Shown here: one piece after another, positions 16,085 through 31,514 of the stretch
Layout: every line of letters begins with the position of its first letter
How positions within the stretch are numbered: position 1 is the stretch's first letter
Origin: Escherichia phage FL18
DNA length: 64,000 nucleotides
Direction: 5' to 3' (one strand)
Sequence record: PP400780
Made by a program: the position numbers and the translations under genes
The notes under the pieces: generated by a model
Told to the model about the DNA's origin: nothing
The model's database searches: none
Seen by the model: only the letters and a program-made list of their open reading frames with translations

Positions 16085-16114
16085 TAGCCCCTTCCGAAAG
16101 GTTGGGGCTTTTTT
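16085..16114 (+). terminator. intrinsic terminator (agcccc..ggggct + T7), cassette copy 1
   Basis: hairpin with GAAA loop followed by T-run. Confidence 0.6.
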
Positions 16115-16115
16115 T

Positions 16116-16123
16116 GTATAAAT
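16116..16123 (+). promoter_or_regulatory. late promoter TATAAATA immediately after terminator
   Basis: exact TATAAATA. Confidence 0.45.
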
Positions 16124-16159
16124 ATAGTAAACAATAAACCTACTTTCTAAGGACCATCA

Positions 16160-16786
16160 ATGTATACTTTTAATGAATTTTTAGCCGAAACGGAAGTAAT
16201 CACCGAAGCCGGTGTACGTATGACAAAAGAGAAATGGCAAGCTGCTTACGATGCTATTTCTGGTACAAAAACTAGTACAGAGTTTTTCAAAAACGTTCAA
16301 GCCATGTACGGTATCGACACTTCCAGCCAAAAAGAATATTACAGAGCTTCTAAAGCATTCAAAGATATTGTTAGTGGTGGCGTTTCTGCTAAATCGGGTT
16401 CGCCTAAAGTAAAACCTGCTCCTACCATTTCTAAACCTGCGACCCCTAAAGCAATAGCAAAACCTGAGCCTAAGCCGGAAGTAAAAGCAACTCCTAAAGC
16501 TCCTGCTCTTAAGTTTGATACTTCTAGCCTGGAAAAAAAATATAAACAACTATCTTCGCTTGTTCGTGATATTGAATCCGATACATCTTCACTCGTTCGT
16601 GAATTCAATAGTCTTCGTAATGGCCAACATATCAACAACCTTGATACCCCAGACCTTTATCGTCTTTATTTGACTATCGAAGGTTTGAAGTACACTCAAC
16701 CACTTCACGATGAGATTAAAGAAAAACTTCGTCAGGCAGGTCGTTTGGCTGCTGACGCTGCTCAGTATGCAAAAACTCGTAAGTAA
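16160..16786 (+). CDS. internal-protein-like with CTS-like N-terminus and Pro/Lys-rich repeat region
   Basis: N-terminus MYTFNEFLAE; repeats PKVKPAPTISKPATPKAIAKPEPKPEVKATPKAP; 208 aa. Confidence 0.55.
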   Translation: MYTFNEFLAETEVITEAGVRMTKEKWQAAYDAISGTKTSTEFFKNVQAMYGIDTSSQKEYYRASKAFKDIVSGGVSAKSGSPKVKPAPTISKPATPKAIAKPEPKPEVKATPKAPALKFDTSSLEKKYKQLSSLVRDIESDTSSLVREFNSLRNGQHINNLDTPDLYRLYLTIEGLKYTQPLHDEIKEKLRQAGRLAADAAQYAKTRK

Positions 16787-16791
16787 AGAAT

Positions 16792-16807
16792 GGGGACTTC
16801 GGTCCCC
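16792..16807 (+). terminator. UUCG-tetraloop hairpin after ORF
   Basis: ggggac-ttcg-gtcccc, no T-run. Confidence 0.35.
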
Positions 16808-16838
16808 ATTAGGGGGTCTATAACTTTCTGAAAAAGTT

Positions 16839-16880
16839 GTTTACTTCTTCCCTAGATGTGTTACTATAGACCTATAAAAA
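16839..16880 (+). promoter_or_regulatory. PeSL (GTTTAC ... TGTTACTATAGACC)
   Basis: seen in sequence. Confidence 0.5.
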
Positions 16881-16895
16881 CATGAGGAAAATATT

Positions 16896-17201
16896 ATGAG
16901 TCTTTATACTGAACTGAATAAAAAATCTGAAGAATCTGCTGAAACTATTTTTAAAAACGTGCAAAAGCGTATTTTAGAAAAGATGTATAACGCTGCAGCT
17001 AAAGGTGAAAAATCTTGCCAGTTTCCGATTAGGTGTTCTTCAGATTTATGCGCAAATACTATTGAATGGCTGGAAAGTGAAGGTCTTACGGTAAAGAAAA
17101 ACCCGGCGACTTCTATTGACGGTGAATCATATATTAGTATTTCTTGGGATAAACCACGTATGAATGAAGGATACTACAAGTTGTTAAGTTGGAAAAATTA
17201 A
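16896..17201 (+). CDS. hypothetical protein
   Basis: 101 aa ORF after PeSL with SD GAGGA. Confidence 0.5.
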   Translation: MSLYTELNKKSEESAETIFKNVQKRILEKMYNAAAKGEKSCQFPIRCSSDLCANTIEWLESEGLTVKKNPATSIDGESYISISWDKPRMNEGYYKLLSWKN

Positions 17202-17210
17202 AAATAATGA

Positions 17211-17240
17211 TGTACAAGCACCAAGGATGGTGATACTATA
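17211..17240 (+). promoter_or_regulatory. PeSL-like early promoter (TGTACA ... TACTAT)
   Basis: 17 nt spacing. Confidence 0.4.
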
Positions 17241-17269
17241 GACTTATCAACTACAGAGGAGTAAACAAA

Positions 17270-17434
17270 ATGACTACTTTAATTATTTGGTTCGATGAAA
17301 ATGAAGAAACATACTGTGTGAATATTGGTGAAAGTCCAATGCCTGAATTTGAATCCTCGGATAAAAACTCTGTTGTATCTTGGGCTGAAGGTTATAAAGC
17401 CGCTAAAGGTGACGTTGAAATAATTTACATCTAA
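17270..17434 (+). CDS. small hypothetical protein (54 aa, below ORF-track cutoff)
   Basis: ATG after SD GAGGAG; translated by eye. Confidence 0.35.
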   Translation: MTTLIIWFDENEETYCVNIGESPMPEFESSDKNSVVSWAEGYKAAKGDVEIIYI

Positions 17435-17453
17435 GTACGTTTATGTTATAGTA
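17424..17453 (+). promoter_or_regulatory. PeSL-like early promoter
   Basis: atttaca ... tatgttatagta. Confidence 0.4.
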
Positions 17454-17481
17454 ATCACATCAAATCAAGAGGAGAAACAAA

Positions 17482-17709
17482 ATGGCTACAGTTAGTATTG
17501 ATGTCGTTGATTATGAATACACTGAAGAAGTTATTCGCAACCGTCACCCTGAAGTTCGTATCGATTCAGTCCAAGATTCCAAGTTTTGGACAACTGAGCT
17601 TAATCTGAGCGGTCCTTATGAAGCTGTTAAGAAGTTCATGGTTGAAGAATACTGCGAAGGCATGCACCCCGAAGACACCAAGTTTTATGTCAATTTGATT
17701 AAAAAATAA
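17482..17709 (+). CDS. hypothetical protein
   Basis: 75 aa ORF, SD AGAGGAG. Confidence 0.5.
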   Translation: MATVSIDVVDYEYTEEVIRNRHPEVRIDSVQDSKFWTTELNLSGPYEAVKKFMVEEYCEGMHPEDTKFYVNLIKK

Positions 17710-17779
17710 TTTACAAACTCTTGAGAGCAGAGTATAATGCTCTCGTTGGATAATAAACCACCAATTGAAAGGTAATAAT

Positions 17780-18373
17780 ATGAACACACTGAAGAAACTT
17801 GTTGAATTCATCCGCACTAAACTGGGTACTGCTATGGCTAAAAATCTGACTGTCGAAGAACAGTATAACGCAGCTGCAGATAAGTTGATCACCCAAATCA
17901 AAGAACTAAAAACGGCTTCTGTTAAATCTATTAATGAAGAAAAACGTATTCGCGAACTTGTTAATGAAAAGAACAAGCAAGCCGCTTCTAAGGAACGTGA
18001 AATTCGTAAGCTCCTGGCTGAAGGACAAGATGTTACTATGCATGCTAAGCTTGGTCTTCTGTATCGTCGAACCGCCGAACAACTTAATACAAAAGCTGAC
18101 GGGTATGCCGCTATGCGAATTGAAATTGCTCGTAAGGTGGTTGAACTTGATGATGCTCGTCAGAATCTGGCAATCAAACTCGAATACATTCGTGAAACTC
18201 GAGCAGCCAATGCCCTTGGTATCTCTACGGCCGATGATGTAATTGAAATCGCTGCACTGACTAAGGTTGATATCGAAGACACTCTGACTCGTGTTGAAAC
18301 GTTCAATGGCACTCCAGCTGGTGTTGAAACCACTTCTGCTGATGTACAAGAATATATTAACTCTTTGAAATAA
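17780..18373 (+). CDS. hypothetical coiled-coil protein
   Basis: 197 aa from ATG 17780; charged/helical composition. Confidence 0.5.
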
Positions 18374-18382
18374 AATAATACG

Positions 18383-18405
18383 GAGGACTCCGGTCCTCCT
18401 TTTGG
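18383..18405 (+). terminator. intrinsic terminator (ggaggac-tccg-gtcctcc + TTTT)
   Basis: seen in sequence. Confidence 0.55.
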
Positions 18406-18422
18406 ATAATAAAGGAGTTAAC

Positions 18423-19025
18423 ATGCGAAACCAAAATAATGATATTGACTCAATGTTCGAAGAGTTCCGAGATAAGGTAAATCCACCTACGTCTTTAGTT
18501 GATTCATTACGATATGTTGCAACTGGACGTAAATGGTACTGGTCGTCTTCTTATGAGACCACCGAGAAAACGGCTAGCCATAGCAGAAAATCTTTATTAG
18601 CCCCAGGTATTATGATTCATGATATCGGAGCTATTGCTAAACTAGTTGCAGACCATGATATTAGATTCACTGATTTCGTTGCTACTACATGGTCTGTTTG
18701 TTGTTTAAACACCGAATTGGAATATATCAGTGAACGTTCAGATGATTACATAGGCTTTAGAGACAAGCTTTTAAGGTCTAACATGTTTTATATTGATACA
18801 GAAGTTCTAGTCAATAATAAAAAATACTACTTCACTTTAATCGTCGATTCTGAAACTATGTATGAAGGCAAGCCTTTGCTTAAGAGAGTTGATGCTTTAA
18901 GTGCTATTGATGCGCTTTATGAAACTATGGTTGTTAGTCCTAATTTCACTAACAATTTAATCCTTGAGCAATTTATTATGGAATGTAGAGAATATGTCAA
19001 AGCCAACCCTGTACATGCCAATTAA
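18423..19025 (+). CDS. hypothetical protein (C-terminus contains FIMECR)
   Basis: 200 aa from ATG 18423 after AAAGGAG. Confidence 0.5.
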   Translation: MRNQNNDIDSMFEEFRDKVNPPTSLVDSLRYVATGRKWYWSSSYETTEKTASHSRKSLLAPGIMIHDIGAIAKLVADHDIRFTDFVATTWSVCCLNTELEYISERSDDYIGFRDKLLRSNMFYIDTEVLVNNKKYYFTLIVDSETMYEGKPLLKRVDALSAIDALYETMVVSPNFTNNLILEQFIMECREYVKANPVHAN

Positions 19026-19389
19026 GCCCTGGGCATACGAATACAAACGTAAATTAATCCCAAATGAAGTACTATTTGGCCCTATTTTAGCTTTAGCATT
19101 TTTAATCTTTATGATTATAGGAGCCGTTTTAGATTCTAGTGAAGTTATATCTTCTGATGCGGTGTTTTTACTTATTATACCTGGGTCGTTTATTGTGCCA
19201 TTTTTATTAATGCCTATTAACTGGGTGGGATATTGGTATCAAGGCCGTCATCACAGAGCTCGAGTTCGTGAGTGGAAAGTTCAGTGCGCAAAAGCCCAAG
19301 CTCAGTATGATGAAGCTGTTAAAAAGTATGAATATGAAGAAGCTATGGAATTCGTTAAGGAAATAAGATGCAAAAGCCTCAACTCTTAA
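19015..19389 (+). CDS. membrane protein
   Basis: hydrophobic segments; start uncertain (18994 or 19015). Confidence 0.4.
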   Translation: MPIKPWAYEYKRKLIPNEVLFGPILALAFLIFMIIGAVLDSSEVISSDAVFLLIIPGSFIVPFLLMPINWVGYWYQGRHHRARVREWKVQCAKAQAQYDEAVKKYEYEEAMEFVKEIRCKSLNS

Positions 19390-19727
19390 CCATATGGCCT
19401 TCTCTTGGTGAGAACATTCTAATTTTTATTATGAGTATTGGCATGGGATTTGCCTTTGGATTAGTTGGATTTCTTATTGACGGCGTTGTGTTAGGATTTA
19501 TAGGGAACACTGGTGGATTCACAGACCAATGGCAGGACTTACGGTATACCAAAGCCTTTGCATCCATCGCATCATTTTGTACTGTAGTCTATTTTTACTA
19601 CGATTTTATAAACCATAACAAGAAAAATAAAAAGGTTTACGCTTCTCAAATGATTAGTTATAATGAACTCCTAGCTAGACGTGAAAATGAAACAATCGAA
19701 AACTTTATTAAGGAATGTAGAAAATGA
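19368..19727 (+). CDS. membrane protein ending NFIKECRK
   Basis: 119 aa; SD AAGGA 7 nt upstream. Confidence 0.5.
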   Translation: MQKPQLLTIWPSLGENILIFIMSIGMGFAFGLVGFLIDGVVLGFIGNTGGFTDQWQDLRYTKAFASIASFCTVVYFYYDFINHNKKNKKVYASQMISYNELLARRENETIENFIKECRK

Positions 19728-20029
19728 GTAAGATTATTGAAATTAAAGTACCAGAGTTTAATGATGCCAAATCCGCTTCAGATGCAATTTATAAACTTCT
19801 GAATCAAGCTGAACGTATCGAAGAAGAAGCAACAAAGATCGCAGACCAATATGCCGTATCATTTTCTGTAGGTGATTATGGTAGCGGTCGTACTTATTAT
19901 CCTAAGGGTGAAATCGTATCCCAGTGGATGAAAAATGAAATTGAAAATAACGGTGGCTATGTTAAGCGTGAAGGTAATGGTTACGTTATTACTGAAGGTG
20001 CTTGGGTTTCGTCTTCTGCGTTGTGCTAA
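19724..20029 (+). CDS. small protein, WVSSSxxC-terminus family member 1
   Basis: 101 aa; ends GAWVSSSALC. Confidence 0.5.
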   Translation: MSKIIEIKVPEFNDAKSASDAIYKLLNQAERIEEEATKIADQYAVSFSVGDYGSGRTYYPKGEIVSQWMKNEIENNGGYVKREGNGYVITEGAWVSSSALC

Positions 20030-20038
20030 GGAATCATT

Positions 20039-20311
20039 ATGTCTAAAGAACAAACCGAACTGGCTGAAGCTGTAGCAAAAATCTATGCAGCTATTGAGGC
20101 TGCCAAAGAAATTGCTGATAAACAAAACACAACATTCGATTTGTACCCAGCTTATGGTATGGGTGGAACCTATCATTCACCAGGACATCTTAAAGCCGAT
20201 CTTGAACGTTGTACAAAAAACGGCTATGCTGAATGGGCTGACGTTTACCAATACGACTACAACCTGAGCCTCGAAACTGGTGGTTGGGTCGCATCTTCTC
20301 ACACTTGCTAA
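20039..20311 (+). CDS. small protein, WVSSSxxC-terminus family member 2
   Basis: 90 aa; ends GGWVASSHTC. Confidence 0.5.
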   Translation: MSKEQTELAEAVAKIYAAIEAAKEIADKQNTTFDLYPAYGMGGTYHSPGHLKADLERCTKNGYAEWADVYQYDYNLSLETGGWVASSHTC

Positions 20312-20320
20312 GGAAACAAT

Positions 20321-20518
20321 ATGTCTCGTGAATTAGATTGTGCTGTACGTACGGCAGTAGCTGCCCTGGAAAACCTGTTCCAAATTGCAACAGAAGAACG
20401 CGAAGAAGTTACATTATGGATTGAAGATAACGCAGGTCTGAATCTCCAGAACGCAATCTCATTATCAAATAATAGTATTACTGTTCAAGGCTGGGTATCA
20501 TCTAGTTATTCTTGCTAA
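20321..20518 (+). CDS. small protein, WVSSSxxC-terminus family member 3
   Basis: 65 aa; ends QGWVSSSYSC. Confidence 0.5.
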   Translation: MSRELDCAVRTAVAALENLFQIATEEREEVTLWIEDNAGLNLQNAISLSNNSITVQGWVSSSYSC

Positions 20519-20522
20519 AACA

Positions 20523-20560
20523 GTTTACAACAAGATAGGGCTATGTTATAGTAGTCCTAT
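20523..20560 (+). promoter_or_regulatory. PeSL
   Basis: GTTTACA + stem-loop tagggctatgttatagtagtcctat. Confidence 0.55.
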
Positions 20561-20580
20561 CAAATTAAATGGAGTCCACA

Positions 20581-20820
20581 ATGATTTATTACGAAAGTAT
20601 TGGAACCAAAGTGGTTGCTAAAACCATTACTCGTGAAAAGTTTGCAAAGATATTTGATATGCGTTATAAAAAATCTGAACACAAAGGCATCCGATTCGAA
20701 GATGCGCACTGTACAATTTGCCCTTATAATGAAGACATAAACGGTACAATCGTTCCATTGGTAGAAGCTTCACATGATGACCTTTGGGATGAATATAATA
20801 TCGCATGTCGTGAAATTTAA
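20581..20820 (+). CDS. hypothetical protein
   Basis: 79 aa from ATG 20581 after TGGAG. Confidence 0.45.
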   Translation: MIYYESIGTKVVAKTITREKFAKIFDMRYKKSEHKGIRFEDAHCTICPYNEDINGTIVPLVEASHDDLWDEYNIACREI

Positions 20821-20848
20821 GTTAATGAATTAATCCGAGGAAAATATT

Positions 20849-21805
20849 ATGATGTTAGTTATTGGTTCTCGTGCACTTCACTATCACGGTCTTATTGATT
20901 CTAGCGCTATCAAAAATAGTGATTGGGACTTTATTGCGGACCAAGGTTCTTGGAATGCATTCAAAAATCAAATGATGGGTGTATATGTCCACCAAGATAA
21001 CCATGATGTCCAAGTTTTCAAATGCTTCCATAATGGACGCGAAACTCATTTTGAAGCATATATTGTTCCGGCAATCACTAATGTCCGTGAATTAGTCGGT
21101 GAACTCACTCCTGAAGATTTCACGTCTTCTTATGACCTTTTAAAATACGCCAAGAAAAATTTGACTAAAGACCGTTTGAACGGGTTTTACTGGGCAACTC
21201 CTGAGATATGTCTTGCAATTAAGATGTCTCATCGTTTCAAGAAAAATAATCCATTCTTTTTAAAGACTATGAACCATATTCAGTATCTTCGTGGTAAAGG
21301 TGTTACACTGAACGATGAACTTACTGAAATTATGCTGAAACGCCAGAAAGAAACCTTGAACTATGCTCACCCGGTTCTTGACACTTCTAAAAGTGCGTTC
21401 TTTAAAGATGACATCTATACATATGACCATGATACTATTCATGAAGCCATTGCACTAACAGACCGTCCAGCGTATACATTTTATATGAAAGACGGTTCTG
21501 AAGTCATGACCTCACGAGAGAAGTTCGAATCGTTACCAGAAATGGTCAAATTGGCCGGTGTATATGAAGAATCATGTGTACTAGCATTAGAACGTTCTCA
21601 GATTCCTAATGACTTTAAAATTAACCCTGAAGCCAGTTTCATGATGGCATTGGAAAAGGTCTGTACAAGCATCACCTCCGGTTGGTTCCGTGAATACGCC
21701 TGGGAAAGCTACAGCAAAGTAGTAAGTATGTACCAAAGTTTAGGACATGACGATTACGTCAAACGTTTCAAACAAAATTTCCATATGGTAAAACCTTTCA
21801 AATAA
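20849..21805 (+). CDS. hypothetical protein (318 aa)
   Basis: long ORF with SD GAGGA; no motif recognised. Confidence 0.5.
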   Translation: MMLVIGSRALHYHGLIDSSAIKNSDWDFIADQGSWNAFKNQMMGVYVHQDNHDVQVFKCFHNGRETHFEAYIVPAITNVRELVGELTPEDFTSSYDLLKYAKKNLTKDRLNGFYWATPEICLAIKMSHRFKKNNPFFLKTMNHIQYLRGKGVTLNDELTEIMLKRQKETLNYAHPVLDTSKSAFFKDDIYTYDHDTIHEAIALTDRPAYTFYMKDGSEVMTSREKFESLPEMVKLAGVYEESCVLALERSQIPNDFKINPEASFMMALEKVCTSITSGWFREYAWESYSKVVSMYQSLGHDDYVKRFKQNFHMVKPFK

Positions 21806-21817
21806 TTTCGCAAAACT

Positions 21818-21854
21818 GTTTACACAATTATAGGACTATGTTATAGTAGTCCTA
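21818..21854 (+). promoter_or_regulatory. PeSL
   Basis: GTTTACA + taggactatgttatagtagtccta. Confidence 0.55.
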
Positions 21855-21875
21855 TTAAAACATGAGGAGAATATT

Positions 21876-22181
21876 ATGAAATTAGGCGAAACCAATCGAA
21901 TCGGTCTTTTTACAATATTTGCATCACCTTTTTACGTAGCTCTTTCTGTTGCAGTATTACAAAAGGCTTACAGTATGGATGGTGTTCCTGGTTTTGTATT
22001 CTTATCACCGTTTTTATTATTCGTCGGAGCTTTGTTATTATATGCCACGACTAGTTTCGACCATAACGTCTGGGTTAATTATAAATGTAAATTGTCTGAA
22101 GAAGAACACGCAGAAGCTCGTAAAAAAGCTATTGAATCTACCAATCTAGAAAATTTCATTAAAGAATGCCGAGGAAAATAA
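21876..22181 (+). CDS. membrane protein ending NFIKECRGK
   Basis: 101 aa, two hydrophobic helices. Confidence 0.5.
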   Translation: MKLGETNRIGLFTIFASPFYVALSVAVLQKAYSMDGVPGFVFLSPFLLFVGALLLYATTSFDHNVWVNYKCKLSEEEHAEARKKAIESTNLENFIKECRGK

Positions 22182-22182
22182 T

Positions 22183-22869
22183 ATGAATAGTTCTAAAGTG
22201 TTTAATAGTCAAGCTCGTGCAGTAGGTGGTTTTGCTCATGCGATTAAAAACGACCAGATTAAAAACGAGCCTATGTTCTTTAACTGCGATTTGAATTTTG
22301 CTTTTGATAATGGCGGTCCAATTACTCGTAGCTTTATCCAAAATCTCCCTGACGATTGGAAAGACTCGGATGTAGTATTTGATTCACGAGTCCACATGCT
22401 GATGCCTGGTTGGTACCCTGCTATCCCAGGTTATCACCATGACGATGTACCACGCCCGGATATTCCGGTTGGTCAACACTTTATTACTGCAGGACAACCT
22501 GACTATGACAATCCTCGCTATTTGTCTGAACATATTCTTGGTCTTGTTAACGCTGATGTGTGTCCTACTCATTTTGCAACAGGAACTGCAGAGTTCAGTC
22601 AGATTCCTGATGGTGAACTTATCTATCGCCAGTGGCACAAAGAAGTCCTCGAAAAAATCGAAAAAGGCGAACTAGAGAAATGGGAAGCTCCAGATCGTAC
22701 TCTTCTTCAGTTTGATTGGCAAACATGGCACACTGGTTCTCGTGCAATTAGTAACGGATGGCGTTGGTTCGGGCGTGTATCTCGTAATACAGACCGAGTT
22801 AAAAAGATTACCAATGAAATTCGTGTCAATGCCCAAGTTTATCTGGAATTCCCTATGGAAGGCTGGTAA
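22183..22869 (+). CDS. hypothetical protein (228 aa)
   Basis: ORF with SD; no motif recognised. Confidence 0.5.
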   Translation: MNSSKVFNSQARAVGGFAHAIKNDQIKNEPMFFNCDLNFAFDNGGPITRSFIQNLPDDWKDSDVVFDSRVHMLMPGWYPAIPGYHHDDVPRPDIPVGQHFITAGQPDYDNPRYLSEHILGLVNADVCPTHFATGTAEFSQIPDGELIYRQWHKEVLEKIEKGELEKWEAPDRTLLQFDWQTWHTGSRAISNGWRWFGRVSRNTDRVKKITNEIRVNAQVYLEFPMEGW

Positions 22870-23348
22870 TGATTAACAATAATATAGACGATGGCAACGA
22901 AGGTATTTCGTATTATTCAGTAGATTGGACAGGATGTCCATCCTACTTAGTGAAACATATTTGCCAAGAATTTAAAATCAACCAGCCAGCAGGTATTATC
23001 GTGAACAGATACATTAATGGATATCAACCTATGGATGAAGTAATACGAACAACTCAAGCTGAGCTTGAAAAGTTTTTCAATAAGTGCCAATGGATAACAG
23101 GATGGATTATATTTGTACCGTCAGTGTGGTTTTTTAGTACTAAAGTAAGTGCCTTTGCTATACTAGATATTATCGCTATCTTATTAGCATCTACTATCGT
23201 AAGTATAATTGGCGGTATAATTGGTGGAGGTACTGTAGGCATCATTATTAATCTTGTTAAAAGTAGTTTACAAGAACGTAAAGACAAGATAAAGGCCAAG
23301 AATAATGAAGTTGAACGTTTTATTACCGAATGCAGGAATTTGAGATGA
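22869..23348 (+). CDS. membrane protein ending RFITECRNLR
   Basis: 159 aa; Gly-rich TM segment IIGGIIGGGTVGIII. Confidence 0.5.
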   Translation: MINNNIDDGNEGISYYSVDWTGCPSYLVKHICQEFKINQPAGIIVNRYINGYQPMDEVIRTTQAELEKFFNKCQWITGWIIFVPSVWFFSTKVSAFAILDIIAILLASTIVSIIGGIIGGGTVGIIINLVKSSLQERKDKIKAKNNEVERFITECRNLR

Positions 23349-24029: not shown

Positions 24030-24063
24030 GTAATAAATACCTCCTATAAACGTGGGAGGTATT

Positions 24064-24552
24064 ATGAATATATTTGAAATGCTTCGTAATGACGAAGGTC
24101 TTAGACTGACTTTATACAAAGACACTGAAGGCTTTTGGACGATTGGCATAGGCCATTTGGTAACAAAGAACCCGTCTTTAGCCATAGCTAAAGCTGAACT
24201 TGACAGAATTATCGGACGTAAATGCAACGGTACAATTACCCTTGATGAGGCTGAAAAGCTATTTAATGAAGACGTTGATAAAGCCGTTCGCGGAATCTTG
24301 GGTAATGCTAAACTTAAACCGGTATATGATTCTTTAGATGCGGTTCGTCGATGTGCATTGGTCAATATGGTCTTCCAAATGGGTGTAGCAGGCGTCGCCG
24401 GTTTTACTAATTCTCTTCGTATGCTTCAACAGAAACGTTGGGACGAAGCGGCAGTAAATCTAGCCCAATCTAAATGGTATCGTCAGACACCTAATCGCGC
24501 GAAACGCGTAATCTCAACATTTAAAACAGGAACTTGGAAAGCGTATATATGA
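24064..24552 (+). CDS. e: endolysin (T4 lysozyme family)
   Basis: [15 protein letters not shown]...TIGIGHL...; length about 162 aa. Confidence 0.9.
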
Positions 24553-24830
24553 AAACATACAATGAATTTTTATCAGAATCTATTCTTAACGAAGCTACTG
24601 ACACATTTGCAACTAAGCTAGGTGCAGCTTTGGTTGAAGCCGAAAGTCTATTAGCACGTATTTCTGAACTTGCTAGTAAGATAGATACTCGCAAATTTGA
24701 ACGTACCAGCGATATCGCTAAGCTTGAAGCCTTGTTACGTATGTGCGATAAACCGGAAGAAATCGCTAAGAACGGCTCGCTGATGAAACAACGTCTTGAA
24801 AAATATATTTCAGGCGCTTCAGAAAAATAG
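24549..24830 (+). CDS. internal-protein-like, [13 protein letters not shown]
   Basis: ATGA overlap with e; 93 aa. Confidence 0.6.
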
Positions 24831-24832
24831 TT

Positions 24833-24884
24833 GTTTACTTCCTCCAAGGGTTTTGATACTATACATTCATCAACTACTTGGAGG
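24833..24884 (+). promoter_or_regulatory. PeSL (inverted repeat cctccaag/cttggagg around GATACTATA)
   Basis: seen in sequence. Confidence 0.5.
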
Positions 24885-24889
24885 AAATT

Positions 24890-24993
24890 ATGACCCGTCC
24901 GAAGCGTCCATTGCGATAAATCAAGCACGCTTAGATGAAAAAATTGCTCAACGTCCGACTTGGTACAAATACTTTGGTAAATCAATTTACTAA
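24890..24993 (+). pseudogene. denV: denV (endonuclease V) remnant: start codon plus frameshifted C-terminal about 31 codons
   Basis: ATG ACC CGT (MTR) then out-of-frame ...[30 protein letters not shown], matching recalled T4 EndoV C-terminus; about 100 internal codons absent. Confidence 0.6.
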
Positions 24994-24999
24994 GGAAAA

Positions 25000-25260
25000 A
25001 TGAAAATGTATCAAGAATTTATCGTTGAAGCAGATGCCAAAGGTCCTAAATTTAAAGTTAAAGCTTTCATTGGTGATGCGGAAGACTTTGGCTCATTAAA
25101 ACGTAATGGGTATTCTTTCTTAGGTGGCAATGGTAAAGAAATCAACACCTATGCAAAACGTAGTGAAATTGCTTATGTTGTAGCAAGTCCTAAAGTAGAT
25201 GTTGACGATATTGGATACGATTTTAACAACTTCGGAATTATTTCTGGCGGTAAAGCTTAA
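25000..25260 (+). CDS. internal-protein-like, CTS MKMYQEFIVE
   Basis: 86 aa. Confidence 0.55.
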   Translation: MKMYQEFIVEADAKGPKFKVKAFIGDAEDFGSLKRNGYSFLGGNGKEINTYAKRSEIAYVVASPKVDVDDIGYDFNNFGIISGGKA

Positions 25261-25263
25261 ATT

Positions 25264-25295
25264 GTTTACGCTTAAGTATTAATATGGTATATAAT
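25264..25295 (+). promoter_or_regulatory. early-type promoter (GTTTAC ... TATAAT)
   Basis: spacing about 20 nt, weaker match. Confidence 0.3.
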
Positions 25296-25325
25296 TACTC
25301 TATCAAAACAAACAAGGAAACAAAA

Positions 25326-25628
25326 ATGAAAACATATCAAGAATTTATTACTGAAGCGCGAGTGAGTGCAGGTAAATTAGAAGCCGCTATAAATAAAAAG
25401 GCCCATTCATTTCATGATTTGTCCGATAAAGACCGTAAGAAACTTGTAAGCCTTTATATTGACAAAGAGCGTATTCTCGCTCTTCCTGGCGCTAATGAAG
25501 GTAAACAGGCCAAGCCTTTGAATGCTGTCGAAAAGAAAATTGATAACTTTGCTTCTAAATTCGGTATGTCTATGGATGACCTTCAGCAAGCGGCTATCGA
25601 AGCAGCTAAAGTAATTAAAGGTAAATAA
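25326..25628 (+). CDS. internal-protein-like, CTS MKTYQEFITE
   Basis: 100 aa; SD AAGGA. Confidence 0.6.
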   Translation: MKTYQEFITEARVSAGKLEAAINKKAHSFHDLSDKDRKKLVSLYIDKERILALPGANEGKQAKPLNAVEKKIDNFASKFGMSMDDLQQAAIEAAKVIKGK

Positions 25629-25630
25629 CA

Positions 25631-25676
25631 GTTTACTTCTCCTAGAATTGTGATAGTATATTCATAATTCTAGGAG
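25631..25676 (+). promoter_or_regulatory. PeSL (11-bp inverted repeat ctcctagaatt/aattctaggag)
   Basis: GTTTAC then stem-loop containing GATAGTATA. Confidence 0.55.
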
Positions 25677-25739
25677 GGGTAAATACAGAAATGGACAATT
25701 CATGTGCCACGGAATGGCCCAACATAAAAGAGAAACTAA

Positions 25740-26279
25740 ATGAGAACATTTTTAACTGGACCTTATCTATCCCTGATGAATGCTTTTACACACCATTCTG
25801 ATGCTAGAGTAGAAGAAATTTGTAAGAACGGTTACGTCCCACCATTTGAAGACGTACTCAAGCAGTACTGTACACTTCGTTTAGACGGCGGCAGACAATC
25901 AGGTAAATCGACCGCAGTAACTAATTTTGCTGTTAATTGGCTGTATGATGGTGGAACAGTTATTGTTCTTTCTAATACTTCAGCTTATGCTAAAATTTCT
26001 GCTGGCAACATTAAAAAAGAATTTTCTCGTTATTCTAGCGATGATATTCGATTCCGTTTATTTACTGATTCTGTTCGTAGTTTTATTGGCAATGAAGGTT
26101 CTAAATTCCGTGGATTAACGCTTTCTCGTATTCTGTACATAATTGACGAGCCTATTAAAGCTCCTGATATGGATAAGATTTACAATGTCCATATTAAAAC
26201 AGCCCAACACTGTTGCAAAAGCAAATATTGCATCGGCGGTATTGCTCGTCCTCAATTTTTTGTGATTGGAATGCAATGA
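25740..26279 (+). CDS. small P-loop NTPase-like protein
   Basis: Walker A-like GGRQSGKST, Walker B-like ILYIIDEP; 179 aa. Confidence 0.45.
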   Translation: MRTFLTGPYLSLMNAFTHHSDARVEEICKNGYVPPFEDVLKQYCTLRLDGGRQSGKSTAVTNFAVNWLYDGGTVIVLSNTSAYAKISAGNIKKEFSRYSSDDIRFRLFTDSVRSFIGNEGSKFRGLTLSRILYIIDEPIKAPDMDKIYNVHIKTAQHCCKSKYCIGGIARPQFFVIGMQ

Positions 26280-26584
26280 TGACCACTATTGAAGTTTTTG
26301 AGTATTGTTATAACAGCCCAGTATGCAATAAAAGGGCTCTTGTAGAAAATTATGAGATTTACCATTTTAAACCTAAACGATATCGTTTGACTAAAGGACC
26401 GTTCGCAGGGCAGCAGGTTCTTTGTACTGCTCCTAATGCACGGTTGATGACTAGTATTCCGCATTTCAAAATGGAATTTATTGATGGGCCATTTAAGGGA
26501 TTAATCACTCAAAGTTTAATGGCGTTTAATTCCGACCCATTTTTGATTAAAGAAAAAACTTGGATAAATTTATTTTCTAATTGA
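26276..26584 (+). CDS. hypothetical protein
   Basis: ATGA overlap; about 102 aa. Confidence 0.4.
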   Translation: MMTTIEVFEYCYNSPVCNKRALVENYEIYHFKPKRYRLTKGPFAGQQVLCTAPNARLMTSIPHFKMEFIDGPFKGLITQSLMAFNSDPFLIKEKTWINLFSN

Positions 26585-26590
26585 GGTTAT

Positions 26591-26953
26591 ATGAAAGCAT
26601 ATCAAATTCTTGAAGGTGCACATAAAGGCACTATTTATTTTGAAGACGGTACTCAAGCCAGGATTATTGTCTCTAAGACTTTTAAAGAAGACTCTATTGT
26701 AGACCCGGAAATTTTCTACGGTTTGAAGGCCCGTGAAATTGAAATTGAACATCAACCTAAAGTTAAAATTGAAGGTGGTCAACATCTGAACGTTAACGTT
26801 CTGCGTCGTGAAACTCTTGAAGATGCAGTTAAGCATCCGGAAAAATATCCGCAGCTGACCATCCGTGTATCTGGTTATGCAGTTCGCTTTAACTCTCTGA
26901 CTCAGGAACAGCAGCGCGACGTTATCGCTCGTACCTTTACTGAGAGTCTATAA
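26591..26953 (+). CDS. autonomous glycyl radical cofactor (GrcA/YfiD-like)
   Basis: C-terminal about 64 aa nearly identical to recalled E. coli GrcA incl. glycyl-radical motif [13 protein letters not shown]; a T4 homologue (Y06I) is described in the literature. Confidence 0.8.
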
Positions 26954-27177
26954 TGGCTAAATTGATTATAGAAGGGTCTGAAGATGTTTTAAAATGTTTT
27001 GCCGCCTGGTTTAGTTGCTCAGGCGAGCAATCATTCACTGAAACATTTAGAATGGGTGATATTACTGGGAACTATCCGACAACTGATATCACTGTACGTG
27101 GATATGGTATTAATGAGCCTATCCAATTGGTCGAATATGACCTTGCCACTGATGAGGAAATTCCTTATGTCGATTGA
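26953..27177 (+). CDS. hypothetical protein
   Basis: 74 aa ORF, ATGA-type overlap. Confidence 0.4.
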   Translation: MAKLIIEGSEDVLKCFAAWFSCSGEQSFTETFRMGDITGNYPTTDITVRGYGINEPIQLVEYDLATDEEIPYVD

Positions 27178-27433
27178 AGACATCAAAGGCCACAAGCCGC
27201 ATACCAATGATAAAATTGGTAAAGTGAACGCTATTAAAGATGCTGAAGTCCGTCTTGGATTGTTGTTTGATGCTCTGATTGAAGAAGCATATATCTTGAA
27301 AGAAAATGAAACAGAGCAACAAACCAAAGAAGATATGGATGCAGTGCAGGCTCTTAAGTACGCTAAGCAACATCTAAAAGAAGCCAGCATGTGGGCATGT
27401 CGTGCAGTATTTCGACCTGAGGAAAAATACTAA
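27167..27433 (+). CDS. hypothetical protein
   Basis: 88 aa from internal ATG of ORF 26999..27433. Confidence 0.4.
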   Translation: MSIEDIKGHKPHTNDKIGKVNAIKDAEVRLGLLFDALIEEAYILKENETEQQTKEDMDAVQALKYAKQHLKEASMWACRAVFRPEEKY

Positions 27434-27648
27434 TGGCTTCTACTATTACTGGGTTATTGGACTTCCAAGAAAAGGTCAACAAAATTTGTAGTGAATACTT
27501 AAAGTATCTTGAAGAAGACCTTGAAGATTGTAAGGAAGAAGGCGAAGAAGACTATGCTGATCAGCGTCGACGCCAAATCGAAGAGATGAGGCGTTTCGCC
27601 AATATAGTATCTAAAGAATCTTGGGCTTTAACTCCATTTTATCAATAA
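27433..27648 (+). CDS. hypothetical acidic protein
   Basis: 71 aa. Confidence 0.4.
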   Translation: MASTITGLLDFQEKVNKICSEYLKYLEEDLEDCKEEGEEDYADQRRRQIEEMRRFANIVSKESWALTPFYQ

Positions 27649-27652
27649 AGTA

Positions 27653-27701
27653 GTTTACTTCTCCTCTAGTTGTGTTACTATAGACCTGTCAACTAGAGGA
27701 G
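27653..27701 (+). promoter_or_regulatory. PeSL (perfect 12-bp inverted repeat ctcctctagttg/caactagaggag)
   Basis: GTTTAC + TGTTACTATAG in loop; 3' arm supplies SD GAGGAG. Confidence 0.6.
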
Positions 27702-27709
27702 AAATCAAA

Positions 27710-28168
27710 ATGACTATCAATTCAGACGTTTTTATCCGCCGTAATAAACTCCGTCGAATCTTTGAAACGGAGTTCCGCAAAATAAATGCCGGTATAAAAG
27801 ATGCTGCAAAGTCTCTTGGACTACCAGGCTTTCATATCAAGTATTCTCAACATCTCTTAGATCGTGCCATCCAGAGAGAAATAGATGAGAATTACGTTTT
27901 TGAATTATTTCATAAAGTAAAAAATCATGTTAAAGAAGTTGCAGAATTTTTATCAATGCCGGCACGTCCAGATGTTGATGAAGATTTTGTCGAAGGTGTC
28001 GAATATCGCCCAGGCCGTTTAGAAATAACTGATGGAAATCTTTGGTTAGGACTTACAGTTTGTCGCGAAAATCCAGCATTCAAAATGAAGACTCTTCAAT
28101 GCAGAATGGCTATTATTAACAGTAAACGACTACCAGGAAAAGCTTCTAAAGCAGTGATTAAAATCTAG
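27710..28168 (+). CDS. hypothetical protein, possibly RegB endoribonuclease (position and size)
   Basis: 152 aa; location in tk-e interval; identity not verified. Confidence 0.35.
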   Translation: MTINSDVFIRRNKLRRIFETEFRKINAGIKDAAKSLGLPGFHIKYSQHLLDRAIQREIDENYVFELFHKVKNHVKEVAEFLSMPARPDVDEDFVEGVEYRPGRLEITDGNLWLGLTVCRENPAFKMKTLQCRMAIINSKRLPGKASKAVIKI

Positions 28169-28176
28169 AGGTAAAC

Positions 28177-28719
28177 ATGAGAAAAGCACTACTCGCTGGT
28201 CTATTTGCTCTTTCGTTATCAGCATATAGCTCCGAGCATACTTTTAGTAATGTCCAACTCGATAACTTGAATTATGCTTATCAGTTCGGGGAACAGTTTT
28301 CTAAGGACGGAAAATTTAAAACGCATGAAAATATGCATAAGAAAGGACTTGGATACATAATGGCCGCAATACTATGGCAAGAATCGTCTGCCGGTATTAA
28401 TCTTAAAGATAAGAAAGGTCACCATGTGTATGGAATGTTCCAAAATTATCTACCAACAATGAGGGCAAGAATTAACCAGCTTGGTTATAATATGACTGAT
28501 GCCCAAATTAAGAAAATGCTATCTAAGCGGTCTAATTCAGCCAGATGGGCTTATATCGAATTTTCTTATTGGTTAAATATACATAATGGGGATATAAGAA
28601 AAGCTATATCCTCATATAATGCAGGATGTAAGACAAGTGCTGGAAGTAAATATGCTTCTGAAGTCCTAGAAAAGGCTAATTACCTTAAATCAAATAAACT
28701 ACTGGAAATAAAAGAATGA
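28177..28719 (+). CDS. secreted lytic-transglycosylase-like protein
   Basis: N-terminal signal peptide; SLT-like motifs WQESS, GMFQ, SYNAG. Confidence 0.5.
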   Translation: MRKALLAGLFALSLSAYSSEHTFSNVQLDNLNYAYQFGEQFSKDGKFKTHENMHKKGLGYIMAAILWQESSAGINLKDKKGHHVYGMFQNYLPTMRARINQLGYNMTDAQIKKMLSKRSNSARWAYIEFSYWLNIHNGDIRKAISSYNAGCKTSAGSKYASEVLEKANYLKSNKLLEIKE

Positions 28720-29063
28720 CCAAAATGTTGGCTTTAATAGTTGGCTTGGTTTCATTTAACGCTCTTGCTAATACTACATATACTGATGTAACGGAGTATA
28801 CAAACAGAACGGCGTCTGATTATTGTGGTAAAAGTCGAGAGTGTAAAGTAGATTTTTCACAAAAATTGTTATATGCGTATAAAGACGGAGAAAAAGATGG
28901 GGCGTCTAGTAGGTTCAAGGCGTCTACTTTAATTAAAAGATACTATAAAAAATGGCAAATATTAGAATGCTCGGTGGCGGAACCTAAAGATAAGGCAGCA
29001 TGCAATTCTATGGTGGACCGTCTAGTTGACTCTTATACTAGAGGACTTGCAGCAAGTGATTAA
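28716..29063 (+). CDS. secreted hypothetical protein (vs position/size)
   Basis: 115 aa with signal-peptide-like N-terminus. Confidence 0.4.
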   Translation: MTKMLALIVGLVSFNALANTTYTDVTEYTNRTASDYCGKSRECKVDFSQKLLYAYKDGEKDGASSRFKASTLIKRYYKKWQILECSVAEPKDKAACNSMVDRLVDSYTRGLAASD

Positions 29064-29520
29064 AAACTATATCAAGGGCGATATTGTCGCCCTGTTTTCT
29101 AAAGGTAATAATATTGCTCACGGGTGTAATTGTTTTCATACAATGGGCGCTGGTGTGGCAGGACAATTAGCAAAGGCTTATCCAAAAATTCTGGAAGCCG
29201 ATAAACTTCAAACCGAATTCGGAGACAAGTCTAAACTCGGGACTTATTCGGTTTATGAAAAATATTTTAAGACCCATAAAGCTTATTGCTTTAATCTTTA
29301 TACACAGTTTGGGCCGGGACCTAATTTTGAGTACTCTGCTTTAATGAATTGTATAATAGAATTAAATGAATTCGGAAAGAATAAGATAACAAAGCCTGTA
29401 ATTTATATGCCAAGAATTGGTGCAGGTATTGGTGGTGGAAACTGGGATGTCATCGAAGAGATTTTAGATACGTATTCCACTAAACTAGAAATTGTGATTG
29501 TTGATTGGGAACCTAAATGA
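29056..29520 (+). CDS. macro-domain protein (ADP-ribose binding/hydrolase fold)
   Basis: GDI...AHGCNCFHTMGAGVAGQL and IGAGIGGG motifs; start codon uncertain (GTG 29056 or TTG 29026). Confidence 0.55.
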   Translation: MIKNYIKGDIVALFSKGNNIAHGCNCFHTMGAGVAGQLAKAYPKILEADKLQTEFGDKSKLGTYSVYEKYFKTHKAYCFNLYTQFGPGPNFEYSALMNCIIELNEFGKNKITKPVIYMPRIGAGIGGGNWDVIEEILDTYSTKLEIVIVDWEPK

Positions 29521-29699
29521 AATTAACTAAAGAAGAGAAAGCTAAACTGTTCGAACTTATCCATGACCTATTGGATGAACAAGCAGCCACCAATGCGTAC
29601 GATGAATATGCTCCTTTAACAGATGAAGAATATCACGCATTGATGGAATCATTTGACAGGAAAGAACAAGAACTCATTGACTACGTGAATTCACTATAA
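29517..29699 (+). CDS. hypothetical protein
   Basis: 60 aa. Confidence 0.4.
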   Translation: MKLTKEEKAKLFELIHDLLDEQAATNAYDEYAPLTDEEYHALMESFDRKEQELIDYVNSL

Positions 29700-29708
29700 G
29701 GGACTCTT

Positions 29709-30290
29709 ATGGCTAGTTTAATTTTTACATATGCCGCTATGAACGCTGGTAAGTCTGCTTCATTACTTACTGCCGCACATAACTATAAAGAACGTGGCAT
29801 GGGTGTATTAGTTCTTAAACCGGCTATTGATACTCGTGATTCAAAAGGTGAAATAGTCTCTCGTATTGGTATTCGTCAGGACGCCAATATAATTACAAAA
29901 GACATGGATATCTTTGAATTCTATAAATGGGCTGCAGCACAAAAGGATATTCACTGCGTATTTGTTGACGAAGCTCAGTTCTTAACTACTGAAAAGGTGT
30001 ATCAACTTAGTCGTATTGTTGACGTATACAATGTGCCGGTAATGGCATATGGACTACGAACAGATTTTAAAGGTAATCTATTTGAAGGTTCTCAAGCATT
30101 AATGGCTATTGCCGATAAGCTTGTTGAACTTAAAGGTGTCTGTCATTGCGGTAAAAAGGCCACAATGGTAGCTAGAGTCACGGAAGACGGACTTCCAATT
30201 ACAGATGGCAGTCAAATTGAAATTGGTGATACCGATAGATATGTGTCATTATGCCGGAAGCATTGGAACGATTTGACAGGGTTGTTATAA
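29709..30290 (+). CDS. tk: thymidine kinase
   Basis: P-loop AMNAGKSASL, zinc ribbon CHCGKKA...C; 193 aa. Confidence 0.85.
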   Translation: MASLIFTYAAMNAGKSASLLTAAHNYKERGMGVLVLKPAIDTRDSKGEIVSRIGIRQDANIITKDMDIFEFYKWAAAQKDIHCVFVDEAQFLTTEKVYQLSRIVDVYNVPVMAYGLRTDFKGNLFEGSQALMAIADKLVELKGVCHCGKKATMVARVTEDGLPITDGSQIEIGDTDRYVSLCRKHWNDLTGLL

Positions 30291-30293
30291 ATA
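30286..30293 (+). promoter_or_regulatory. late promoter TATAAATA
   Basis: exact match overlapping tk stop. Confidence 0.35.
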
Positions 30294-30317
30294 CTAATAT
30301 CTAACCAAGAGGTATAT

Positions 30318-30530
30318 ATGCAGCAATTAAACGAAAGACAACTTCGTAATCTTACTGTAACCCAATTGGATGAAATCCGAAGAGAATTAGGACATTCTAT
30401 TTCTCATTTAAACGAGGATATCCGTCAAACTGGTTCTAAAGCTGATTATACACGCAAGCGCAAGCTGGAAAAATACCTCACAGATGTTAAGGCCGTCCAA
30501 AGGCGAAAAATAAATACTGGCCAAAATTAA
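30318..30530 (+). CDS. hypothetical protein
   Basis: 70 aa, SD GAGG. Confidence 0.45.
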
Positions 30531-30542
30531 CAGGAGGCCTAT

Positions 30543-30845
30543 ATGGCCTTAAGAGCGATAGCTGTCATGGCGAGGCTGGGGTTTTTTGCAGCAACAACTC
30601 CTATCGTTGGTACTGCATATATCGACCCATATTTTGATAACTTTATGGAATCAGGGATTAAAAACGTATATACTTTGTTTGAAATTCAAAATGTCGAGAA
30701 TTCTGAAAAATTCTATAAGTATATGGCAAAGCATTACAAAAATAGCCCCTGTGATGATGCATTTGAATGTCATGAACAAGGCATAAAAACTGCCAGACAA
30801 TTTGCCGAGTTCATGAAAATAAAATTAGAGCCTACGTCTATCTAA
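30543..30845 (+). CDS. rI: lysis inhibition regulator RI
   Basis: 100 aa; N-terminal hydrophobic segment, DPYFDNFMESGI...CDDAFEC similar to recalled T4 RI. Confidence 0.7.
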   Translation: MALRAIAVMARLGFFAATTPIVGTAYIDPYFDNFMESGIKNVYTLFEIQNVENSEKFYKYMAKHYKNSPCDDAFECHEQGIKTARQFAEFMKIKLEPTSI

Positions 30846-30851
30846 TTTACT

Positions 30852-30880
30852 AGCCCCTTCCGAAAGGTTGGGGCTTTTTT
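30852..30880 (+). terminator. intrinsic terminator, cassette copy 2
   Basis: agccccttccgaaaggttggggct + T-run. Confidence 0.6.
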
Positions 30881-30881
30881 G

Positions 30882-30889
30882 TATAAATA
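30882..30889 (+). promoter_or_regulatory. late promoter TATAAATA after terminator
   Basis: exact match. Confidence 0.45.
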
Positions 30890-30913
30890 TCCTTGTAAAC
30901 TAAGAGAGGATAT

Positions 30914-31471
30914 ATGAAATTTTTAAAATATGTAAGTTGGGTTGTTCTTGTTCCTATAGATTGGATCGCAGCGATTTTAGCAATTATTCTAGCACCATTT
31001 GTAGTTCCATTCCATAGTGAAAAAACCGGTAAACTACCTTATGGCTTTGACTGGATGATGACTTACGATAATCCTATCGATGGTGACCGCGGCCATGTTG
31101 AACGTTGGTCTAAAATACGTAAAATTCCTGTTATAGGTAAATATGCTCAACGCGTAGCTTGGCTATGGCGCAACAAAGCATATAATTTTTCTTATCATGT
31201 TTTAGGTCGCGAAGCTTCATCAGAATGGCACTATAAAGGCAACGCCGAAACTAAATCTGGATCTCCTGATCCGGCACATCATGGATATCTTTTAGTTTGG
31301 AACGAGTCTGCATGGGGATTATTCGCTGCTATACCTTATCTTAAGGTTGGTGGTATTACATTTTATCTGCGTGTTTACTGTGGTTGGAAACTTAAGAGTC
31401 TTTTGAGTCGTCCTATTCCACGCGCAATGCTTTCATTCCATATCAACCCTTTACGATATTACAAAAACTAA
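30914..31471 (+). CDS. membrane protein
   Basis: 185 aa, N-terminal TM helix. Confidence 0.5.
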   Translation: MKFLKYVSWVVLVPIDWIAAILAIILAPFVVPFHSEKTGKLPYGFDWMMTYDNPIDGDRGHVERWSKIRKIPVIGKYAQRVAWLWRNKAYNFSYHVLGREASSEWHYKGNAETKSGSPDPAHHGYLLVWNESAWGLFAAIPYLKVGGITFYLRVYCGWKLKSLLSRPIPRAMLSFHINPLRYYKN

Positions 31472-31475
31472 TCAA

Positions 31476-31504
31476 AGCCCCTTCCGAAAGGTTGGGGCTT
31501 TTTT
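31476..31504 (+). terminator. intrinsic terminator, cassette copy 3
   Basis: same hairpin sequence + T-run. Confidence 0.6.
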
Positions 31505-31514
31505 GCATTTAGCA

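Follow-up and report, generated by a model that had tools for sequence, protein, structure and literature searches.

The window analysed here, the whole 64,000-nucleotide (nt) stretch of Escherichia phage FL18 (sequence record PP400780), carries three identical copies of a terminator-like hairpin. Two of them run directly into the T4-type late-promoter octamer TATAAATA, and two enclose the small open reading frame (ORF) termed ORF185. We consider it likely, as the explanation that best covers the whole of the evidence, that this element joins a terminator hairpin to a late promoter and also serves as a recombination joint at which small late genes are acquired or lost. The explanation builds on the anatomy and conservation of the repeat, on insertions and deletions bounded by the hairpin, on a homologous cassette at another locus in another genus, and on footprints in the hairpin loops, all of which are observed directly. 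The window belongs to a Mosigvirus, an RB69/JS09-like T-even phage whose nearest records are 96-99% identical, and early genes are read along its + strand.

The repeated hairpin and its late-promoter octamer

The 24-mer AGCCCCTTCCGAAAGGTTGGGGCT occurs in exactly three copies on the + strand, at 16086-16109 (copy 1), 30852-30875 (copy 2) and 31476-31499 (copy 3). No further copies were found in the window with up to three mismatches allowed, and 100 dinucleotide shuffles yielded 0 matches. The triple identical terminator sequence described in the initial annotation, which was made from the letters alone, is therefore borne out, apart from its first coordinate, 16085, which is one base too low. 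Counted from GGGGC, the T-tract comprises seven residues in copy 1 and six in each of the other two. For copies 1 and 2, this tract leads into GTATAAATAT, the continuation being a G, the octamer TATAAATA and a T, which places the octamer at 16117-16124 and 30882-30889; the earlier observation that these two copies run through the T-tract into the late promoter consensus is thus reproduced, with octamers beginning at 16117 and 30882. Apart from the single base by which their T-tracts differ in length, copies 1 and 2 agree throughout 40-41 nt. No octamer follows copy 3, which continues with GCATTTAGCA and then with GTTTAC-N17-TATAGT, an early-type promoter; copies 2 and 3 share 30 identical nt without gaps.

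As RNA, the repeat folds into a GC stem of 6 base pairs (bp), a UU/UU internal loop, 2 further bp and a GAAA tetraloop, with a minimum free energy of about -16 kcal/mol. The 60-nt contexts span -16.0 to -20.6 kcal/mol with z scores of -2.4 to -4.0 (copy 1, -20.6 and z -2.4; copy 2, -16.0 and z -3.1; copy 3, -19.7 and z -4.0). Each hairpin lies downstream of a unit on the same strand: copy 1 follows a homologue of T4 rnaC, copy 2 begins 6 nt past the stop codon of rI, and copy 3 begins 4 nt past that of ORF185. All three copies therefore display a stable GC-rich stem-loop, an adjoining U-tract and a location just 3' of a same-strand unit. Collectively, these three features suggest that the repeat is an intrinsic-terminator hairpin. 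The stem is strongly conserved across genera, and in an alignment of 10 variants 85% of the stem cells are paired, versus 31-67% in slid registers.

The T4-type late promoter consensus places the octamer at -13 to -6 (PMC1524935), and copies 1 and 2 match it, with late starts predicted near 16130 and near 30895, respectively. After homologous hairpins in related phages, the octamer is kept while the neighbouring bases diverge (GGTATAAATATTAG, GATATAAATAGATG, AGTATAAATACAGT, TTATAAATATAACG and TGTATAAATATGTAG), and phiC120 carries the octamer variant AATAAATA. The octamer of copy 2 is fully conserved relative to Dhakavirus MX01, while the leader 3' of it diverges. In Yersinia phage fPS-65, the homologous hairpin is followed by GGTATAAATA, and the record itself annotates a terminator and a predicted late promoter. 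The window encodes a gp55 homologue (45514-46077; phrog_234, 3e-68) and gp45 (51815-52501), and thus the late sigma factor and the sliding clamp, both of which TATAAATA promoters need. Genes for gp46/47 are also present, and the gene for gp33 is expected to lie outside the window. The octamers of copies 1 and 2 fit gp55-type late promoters, and the original reading of terminator plus late promoter agrees with the predicted structure, the octamer conservation, the fPS-65 annotation and the presence of gp55 and gp45.

Hairpin-bounded gene cassettes at the rI and rnaC sites

Between close relatives, copies of the repeat stand at the boundaries of insertions, deletions and replacements both at the rI site and at the rnaC site. 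The features of the rI site are as follows.

30286-30293, + strand: octamer TATAAATA at the tk/rI.1 junction, where the rI.1-rI operon of T4 has its known late promoter
30543-30845, + strand: rI antiholin gene (Pfam Antiholin, 4e-23; phrog_1246), annotated so in relatives
30852-30880, + strand: hairpin copy 2 with T-tract, predicted rI terminator and left cassette boundary; left edge of the homology with the Dhakavirus unit
30914-31471, + strand: ORF185, a predicted membrane protein (Pfam DUF7338, 6.7e-62; phrog_2143)
31476-31504, + strand: hairpin copy 3 with T-tract, predicted ORF185 terminator and right cassette boundary
31515-31543, + strand: early-type promoter GTTTAC-N17-TATAGT directly 3' of copy 3, upstream of a DUF7438 gene (31571-31750)

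The cassette consists of the late promoter, ORF185 and the hairpin, and it spans 624 bp, or one repeat period (30876-31499). ORF185 begins with MKFLKYVSWV... and has no internal-protein leader. At an identity of at least 95%, ORF185 is found in only 22 phage records, and it is missing from SF, JS09 and AV117. Phage SF carries rI, a single hairpin and TTTTTTGCATTTAGCA, that is, the left flank of copy 2 joined to the right flank of copy 3. JS09 and AV117 show the same arrangement of rI, hairpin and early promoter, and they differ from the window by one 624-bp period. Complete Mosigvirus genomes contain three copies of the module when ORF185 is present and two when it is not. The T4 rI operon is transcribed from an early promoter and a late one at the tk/rI.1 junction (PMC2962797), the equivalent of which in the window lies at 30286.

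The closest further DUF7338 genes, with 75-78% amino-acid identity, occur in Dhakavirus, where they occupy the rnaC site. In MX01, this site reads hairpin, T6, GTATAAATAT, DUF7338 gene, hairpin, early promoter and e.8, and QL01 carries the same hairpin-bounded DUF7338 unit there. Homology between the MX01 unit and window positions 30852-31505 amounts to about 75% and extends from the first base of the hairpin to the 3' T-tract, with unrelated sequence on both flanks. Both MX01 hairpins share the compensatory variant AGGCCC...GGGCCT. In QL01, an extra internal-protein-like gene is included within the hairpin-bounded frame at the rnaC site. The DUF7338 genes of Slopekvirus and Felixounavirus lack the hairpin-late-promoter module.

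The second site of the window comprises the following features.

15613-15686, + strand: tRNA-Met (ARAGORN and Rfam)
15693-15769, + strand: tRNA-Arg (ARAGORN and Rfam)
about 15771-15890, + strand: rnaD homologue, and about 15897-16035, + strand: rnaC homologue (near-identical alignment to annotated T4 rnaD/rnaC over about 265 nt)
16086-16115, + strand: hairpin copy 1 with its 7-T tract, homologue of the hairpin after T4 rnaC
16160-16786, + strand: ORF208 (phrog_2280), whose N-terminus MYTFNEFLAE resembles the T-even capsid-targeting leader MKTYQEFIAE

Copy 1 is predicted to be the terminator of the tRNA/rnaD/rnaC unit. At the corresponding position, behind a trailer that is likewise nearly identical, T4 has AGCCCCGACCGAAAGGTTGGGGCT, which matches at 22/24 positions; its positions 7-8 are GA instead of TT, so that the stem pairs perfectly over 10 bp. 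Next to this hairpin, the terminator of the tRNA operon according to the older T4 literature, comes TTTTTGGTATCTAAG, and a late promoter is absent. Across 66.0-74.0 kb and 57.5-61.0 kb of T4, the two regions inspected, the hairpin occurs only once, and T4 rI.-1 has a UUCG hairpin of unrelated sequence as its terminator. With 280 nt centred on copy 1 as the query, 786 phage records matched, only 72 of which reach into ORF208. Among 60 of these records, sampled with an even spread, the alignment ends 5-8 nt past TATAAATA in 31/60 and inside the T-tract in 12/60 (including T4, T6, RB14 and RB55). Because so many alignments stop right behind the octamer or the T-tract, the hairpin-promoter block is a conserved linker ahead of variable genes. 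Judged from these alignments, copy 1 is the ancestral hairpin 3' of rnaC, common to T4 and to hundreds of T-even genomes; it is not an inserted element, and the initial reading of a mobile cassette needs correcting for this copy.

At the rnaC site, LF82-9 and fPS-65 correspond to the T4 arrangement plus late promoter, internal-protein gene and hairpin. The genes behind homologues of copy 1 start like the leader MKTYQEFIAE (fPS-65 g136c, MKSYTQFLNE, and g135c, MKTYAEFLTE; LF82-9 ORF157, MKSYAQFLNE; QL01_137 likewise), and ORF208 is a candidate internal head protein that may be injected. Pfam assigned no function to ORF208, to the fPS-65 cassette genes or to an extra ORF of JK42. Restriction of expression to late times agrees with the packaging of such proteins into proheads. 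The internal-protein genes at the ipI locus of the window have early-type promoters and no TATAAATA. In addition, ORF208 contains a central Pro/Lys/Ala-rich stretch, KPAPTISKPATPKAIAKPEPKPEVKATPKAP, and on the right side of its unit (16789-16870) GGGGAC-TTCG-GTCCCC without a T-tract is followed by GTTTAC-N17-TATAGA, a PeSL-like arrangement (PeSL, early-promoter stem-loop).

Sequences of the rI site gathered from phage records, assemblies and metagenome contigs (about two dozen loci) reveal different loop alleles. At empty sites, the single hairpin carries a GAAA loop at four loci, TTAC at two and TTAT at four. At filled sites, the upstream loop is mostly GAAA, with TAAA in AV114, TTAC at one locus and TTAT at two, and the downstream loop is GAAA at every locus showing that hairpin. 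Every rnaC-site hairpin seen also has a GAAA loop, and for this reason TTAC and TTAT look like resident rI alleles and GAAA like the allele of the cassette. A resident upstream loop combined with a downstream GAAA loop fits the product expected of a single crossover 3' of the loop, and the GAAA/GAAA state of the window would need a crossover 5' of the loop or a later conversion. The AV114 loop TAAA reads as a TTAC/GAAA chimera. The stem variant GGTCGGGG is present both at the rnaC site of JK42 and, in other genomes, at the position of copy 3; inter-locus exchange or recurrent mutation would explain its occurrence at two loci.

Proposed mechanism and alternative explanations

For termination, late initiation, and the recombination pathway with its intermediates, we infer the following scheme from the sequences. 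The end of the T-even tRNA-rnaD-rnaC unit would be the ancestral home of the hairpin. Each hairpin would stop early, middle and late read-through from the unit upstream, namely the tRNA/rnaC unit, which is strongly transcribed, or else the rI.1-rI operon, and the adjoining octamer would restart transcription late only, yielding short insulated messages for ORF208 and ORF185. ORF185 would then form a monocistronic late unit, and late timing would suit a capsid-packaged ORF208 product. The identical blocks of hairpin, T-tract and octamer, 30-41 nt in length, could provide short homology patches for the phage recombination system. The unit of late promoter, ORF185 and hairpin may have joined the rI terminator hairpin already in place through a crossover inside that hairpin or its T-tract, the simplest source being a circular or ectopically paired copy of the cassette from an rnaC-type site, and recombination between copies 2 and 3 could remove it again. 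Published background to such events includes the mini-circles of PeSL and middle-promoter stem-loop (PmSL) cassettes and T4 recombination on patches of <50 bp, through which such a role of homology patch was proposed and in part demonstrated for PeSLs, as well as deletions in T4 with endpoints at GGGC/GCCC inverted repeats (PMC2839356, PMC4122927). Of the initial proposal of a mobile regulatory cassette, mobility is supported by the filled and empty rI sites, the Dhakavirus locus and the loop footprints, and the moving part requires correction, as it appears to be a hairpin-bounded gene cassette and not the regulatory module alone.

Several results weigh against this explanation. On the regulatory side, TATAAATA is not enriched in the window (9 observed vs 8.8 expected). 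With its count at chance level, the octamer by itself provides no evidence, nor is it diagnostic alone, because the DNA is AT-rich; the case for a promoter thus rests on position and on conservation in relatives. The UU/UU internal loop causes all three hairpins to be missed by a consensus perfect-stem terminator scan of 13001-33000, an interval in which terminator-like sites are not clearly enriched (19 vs 12.6 ± 3.5). Stem covariation offers thin support, as it amounts to one compensatory pair, C3:G22 to G3:C22 in Dhakavirus, among only 10 variants. No transcript-end mapping for T4 or Mosigvirus was found in the searched literature. On the side of recombination, the exact ORF185 protein was found in no other genomic context, as it follows rI in all of the 10 contexts shown of 23 contigs, and therefore there is no sign of ongoing hopping. 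No donor with >80% identity was found at another locus. A break in similarity between relatives exactly at copy 3 was considered and rejected, since divergence sets in near 31600, within the gene that follows, and a breakpoint at copy 3 is therefore not used as evidence. The loop footprint is indirect evidence, its loci are a small sample and not independent lineages, and empty sites with GAAA could be ancestral rather than products of excision.

Some of these results suit an account in which the signals are purely regulatory, the hairpin, a good terminator acquired by inheritance or copying, just marks gene ends, and ORF185 and the internal-protein genes come and go by ordinary homologous exchange with already differing donors in the long flanking genes or by illegitimate events. 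The single genomic context of the exact ORF185 allele and the failure of mosaic boundaries among close relatives to coincide with copy 3 both favour it. So does a further element on the minus strand of the window:

1140-1176, minus strand: unrelated hairpin GGGAGCC-TTCG-GGCTCCC (1159-1176) followed by ATTTTTGTATC and TATAAATA (1140-1147), between baseplate genes 8 and 9

The presence of a hairpin and a late promoter between these core genes indicates that the architecture is ordinary in T-even phages; what stands out in the present case is the repetition and the link with insertions and deletions, not the architecture. Exchange in the flanks explains the spread of an existing insertion, but not a unit lying between two copies of one hairpin at two loci in different genera. 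The constant GAAA loops downstream, as opposed to resident alleles upstream, and the pile-up of homology breaks within 20 nt of the T-tract or octamer are likewise left unexplained, and we regard the purely regulatory account as unlikely.

A very unlikely alternative, in our assessment, is that some dedicated activity acts on the hairpin, for instance a nuclease specific for its structure or sequence, an enzyme of the homing type or endonuclease VII cleaving a cruciform, so that cassette movement is targeted in an integron- or homing-like manner. The strong conservation of the stem across genera is in keeping with this idea; Arbiol et al. raised such a possibility for the GGGG...CCCC stems of PeSLs (PMC2839356), and T4 deletions cluster at GGGC/GCCC inverted repeats, for which Mosig et al., as cited by Arbiol et al., proposed a possible sequence-specific protein. 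Nevertheless, the cassettes carry no nuclease or recombinase gene, their cargo being the DUF7338 membrane protein and internal-protein-like ORFs, hairpin copies number only 2-4 per genome, and plain homologous crossovers account for the footprints. That the triple occurrence reflects chance or an assembly artefact has a practically negligible probability, given 0 matches in shuffled sequences and the same three copies in independently sequenced phages and metagenome contigs. Beyond the recombination joint itself lies a broader and quite improbable scenario, in which the cassettes excise as small circles, are packaged and integrate at any hairpin copy, possibly via a structure-specific nuclease acting on the extruded hairpin. 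Such a system would be integron-like without an integrase and would carry late accessory genes between poorly recombining T-even genera.

Relation to known cassettes and accompanying observations

The element closely resembles PeSL/PmSL cassettes, in which a terminator stem-loop directly precedes a promoter and near-identical copies recur in plastic regions and at the edges of insertions, deletions and replacements (PMC2839356, PMC4122927). Recombination between copies, possibly via mini-circles, has been proposed for those cassettes as well, resulting in insulated single-gene units. All three copies in the window share the PeSL layout of stem-loop, promoter, Shine-Dalgarno sequence and ATG. 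However, PeSLs contain early sigma-70-like promoters and PmSLs MotA-type middle promoters, whereas copies 1 and 2 have the late TATAAATA and no -35/-10 pair; lacking an early promoter, they are therefore not filed as PeSLs, while copy 3 has one. The number of hairpin copies, 2-4 per genome, also differs from the dozens of PeSLs. The initial claim that the cassette is distinct from the PeSL thus stands for the late promoter of copies 1 and 2 and fails for copy 3, in which the same hairpin with an early promoter has PeSL architecture, and for this reason the element is better described as a late-promoter variant of the PeSL/PmSL principle. The search of related phages suggested at the outset located the cassette in Mosigvirus relatives, Dhakavirus, fPS-65 and LF82-9.

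Other systems offer partial parallels. At T-even internal-protein loci, variable genes with a capsid-targeting leader lie between conserved blocks of transcription signals that were proposed to mediate shuffling (Repoila et al. 1994, per PMC2839356, PMC4122927). The elements of those loci are early promoters and weak AT-rich stem-loops (PMC2839356), whereas the present element combines a GC-rich stem with a late promoter, and ORF185 is no internal protein. In lambdoid morons, likewise, one accessory ORF is inserted between two genes together with a promoter and a terminator of its own. A moron reading was rejected because the GC contents of ORF185 (38.7%) and ORF208 (39.9%) are near that of the window (36.8%); phage-specific late signals and boundaries formed by direct repeats of the resident terminator are further differences. 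Integron cassettes (attC) share single-gene content, imperfect hairpin bounds and presumed circular intermediates, but in the absence of an integrase and an attI site here the likeness is an analogy only.

It is accepted that PeSL (early) and PmSL (middle) cassettes explain much of the turnover of genes in T4-type phages, and the late-promoter version is described neither in those papers nor elsewhere in the searched literature: the term 'late promoter' is absent from both PeSL papers (PMC2839356, PMC4122927), and the literature searched contained no paper on a late-promoter stem-loop cassette. An earlier survey (Nolan et al., PMC1524935) reported late promoters only before conserved late genes, with novel ORFs expressed early and not moron-like. 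The variable accessory genes considered here are predicted to be late-only and bounded by a portable terminator, and they include candidate injected internal proteins, a class of proteins that block GmrSD-type restriction (PMC12373910). If mobile circles did exist, late accessory genes, including those for injected anti-defence internal proteins and the DUF7338 membrane protein, would be exchanged between T-even genera. Since the loop alleles TTAC/TTAT and GAAA are natural markers, the crossover point could be mapped with them, and the recombination model would then be directly testable.

The gene order of the window runs from baseplate genes 9, 8 and 7 (minus strand) through 57B, the ipI locus, the tRNAs, tk and rI to genes 55, 47, 46, 45, 44 and 43. 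Within positions 31601-31700, the DUF7438 gene behind copy 3 exists as two sharply different alleles, with 15-18 differences per 100 nt between the window and AV114, LF82-1, TH58, JS09 and AV117, and one difference relative to SF. DUF7338 genes lie inside or beside tRNA clusters in unrelated groups (Felixounavirus, Slopekvirus and Dhakavirus), and in the window the gene sits behind the antiholin gene rI instead of a tRNA cluster. In Felixounavirus, the DUF7338 gene is on the opposite strand in mid-cluster and is sometimes annotated as a holin. Within the extracted loci, DUF7338 genes occupy 1501-2058 (Salmonella phage Mushroom), 1501-2067 (KP15) and 2501-3055 (MX01).

The tRNA region is variable in its own right. 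An Rfam scan at the gathering threshold and at E<=1 returned the two tRNAs only, with no family for the rnaD and rnaC homologues. Dhakavirus MX01 has rnaD and the 3' trailer but no rnaC. An ORF of 345-351 nt (114-116 amino acids, no Pfam match) lies between tRNA-Arg and rnaD in JK42 (2789-3133 of the extracted locus), LF82-1 and fPS-65 and is missing from the window (insertion point 15769/15770), representing a further presence/absence polymorphism of this region. The Mosigvirus isolates LF82-9 and LF82-1, otherwise 99.9% identical, differ in a swapped tRNA region at record coordinates of about 144-148 kb. LF82-1 has two tRNAs there, whereas LF82-9 has a Tequatrovirus-like block with 10 tRNAs and T4-type hairpins and looks like an intergeneric recombinant.

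Exact IMG/VR scans returned only 9 and 5 loci, and a scan with the degenerate pattern AGCCCCNNCCGAAAGGNNGGGGCT returned mostly unrelated phages with generic GAAA-loop terminators. In many podovirus-sized (about 40 kb) uncultivated IMG/VR contigs, a small hairpin with the loop CCGACAAGG is followed by AGCCCCTGCCGAAAGGTGGGGGCT; in the single contig checked (L056, 1441-1464, minus strand), this hairpin comes directly after the major capsid gene. T-even phages share this CCCCGACAAGG motif, located about 20 nt upstream of their rnaC hairpin, a likeness that could reflect a shared two-hairpin 3' module or coincidence.

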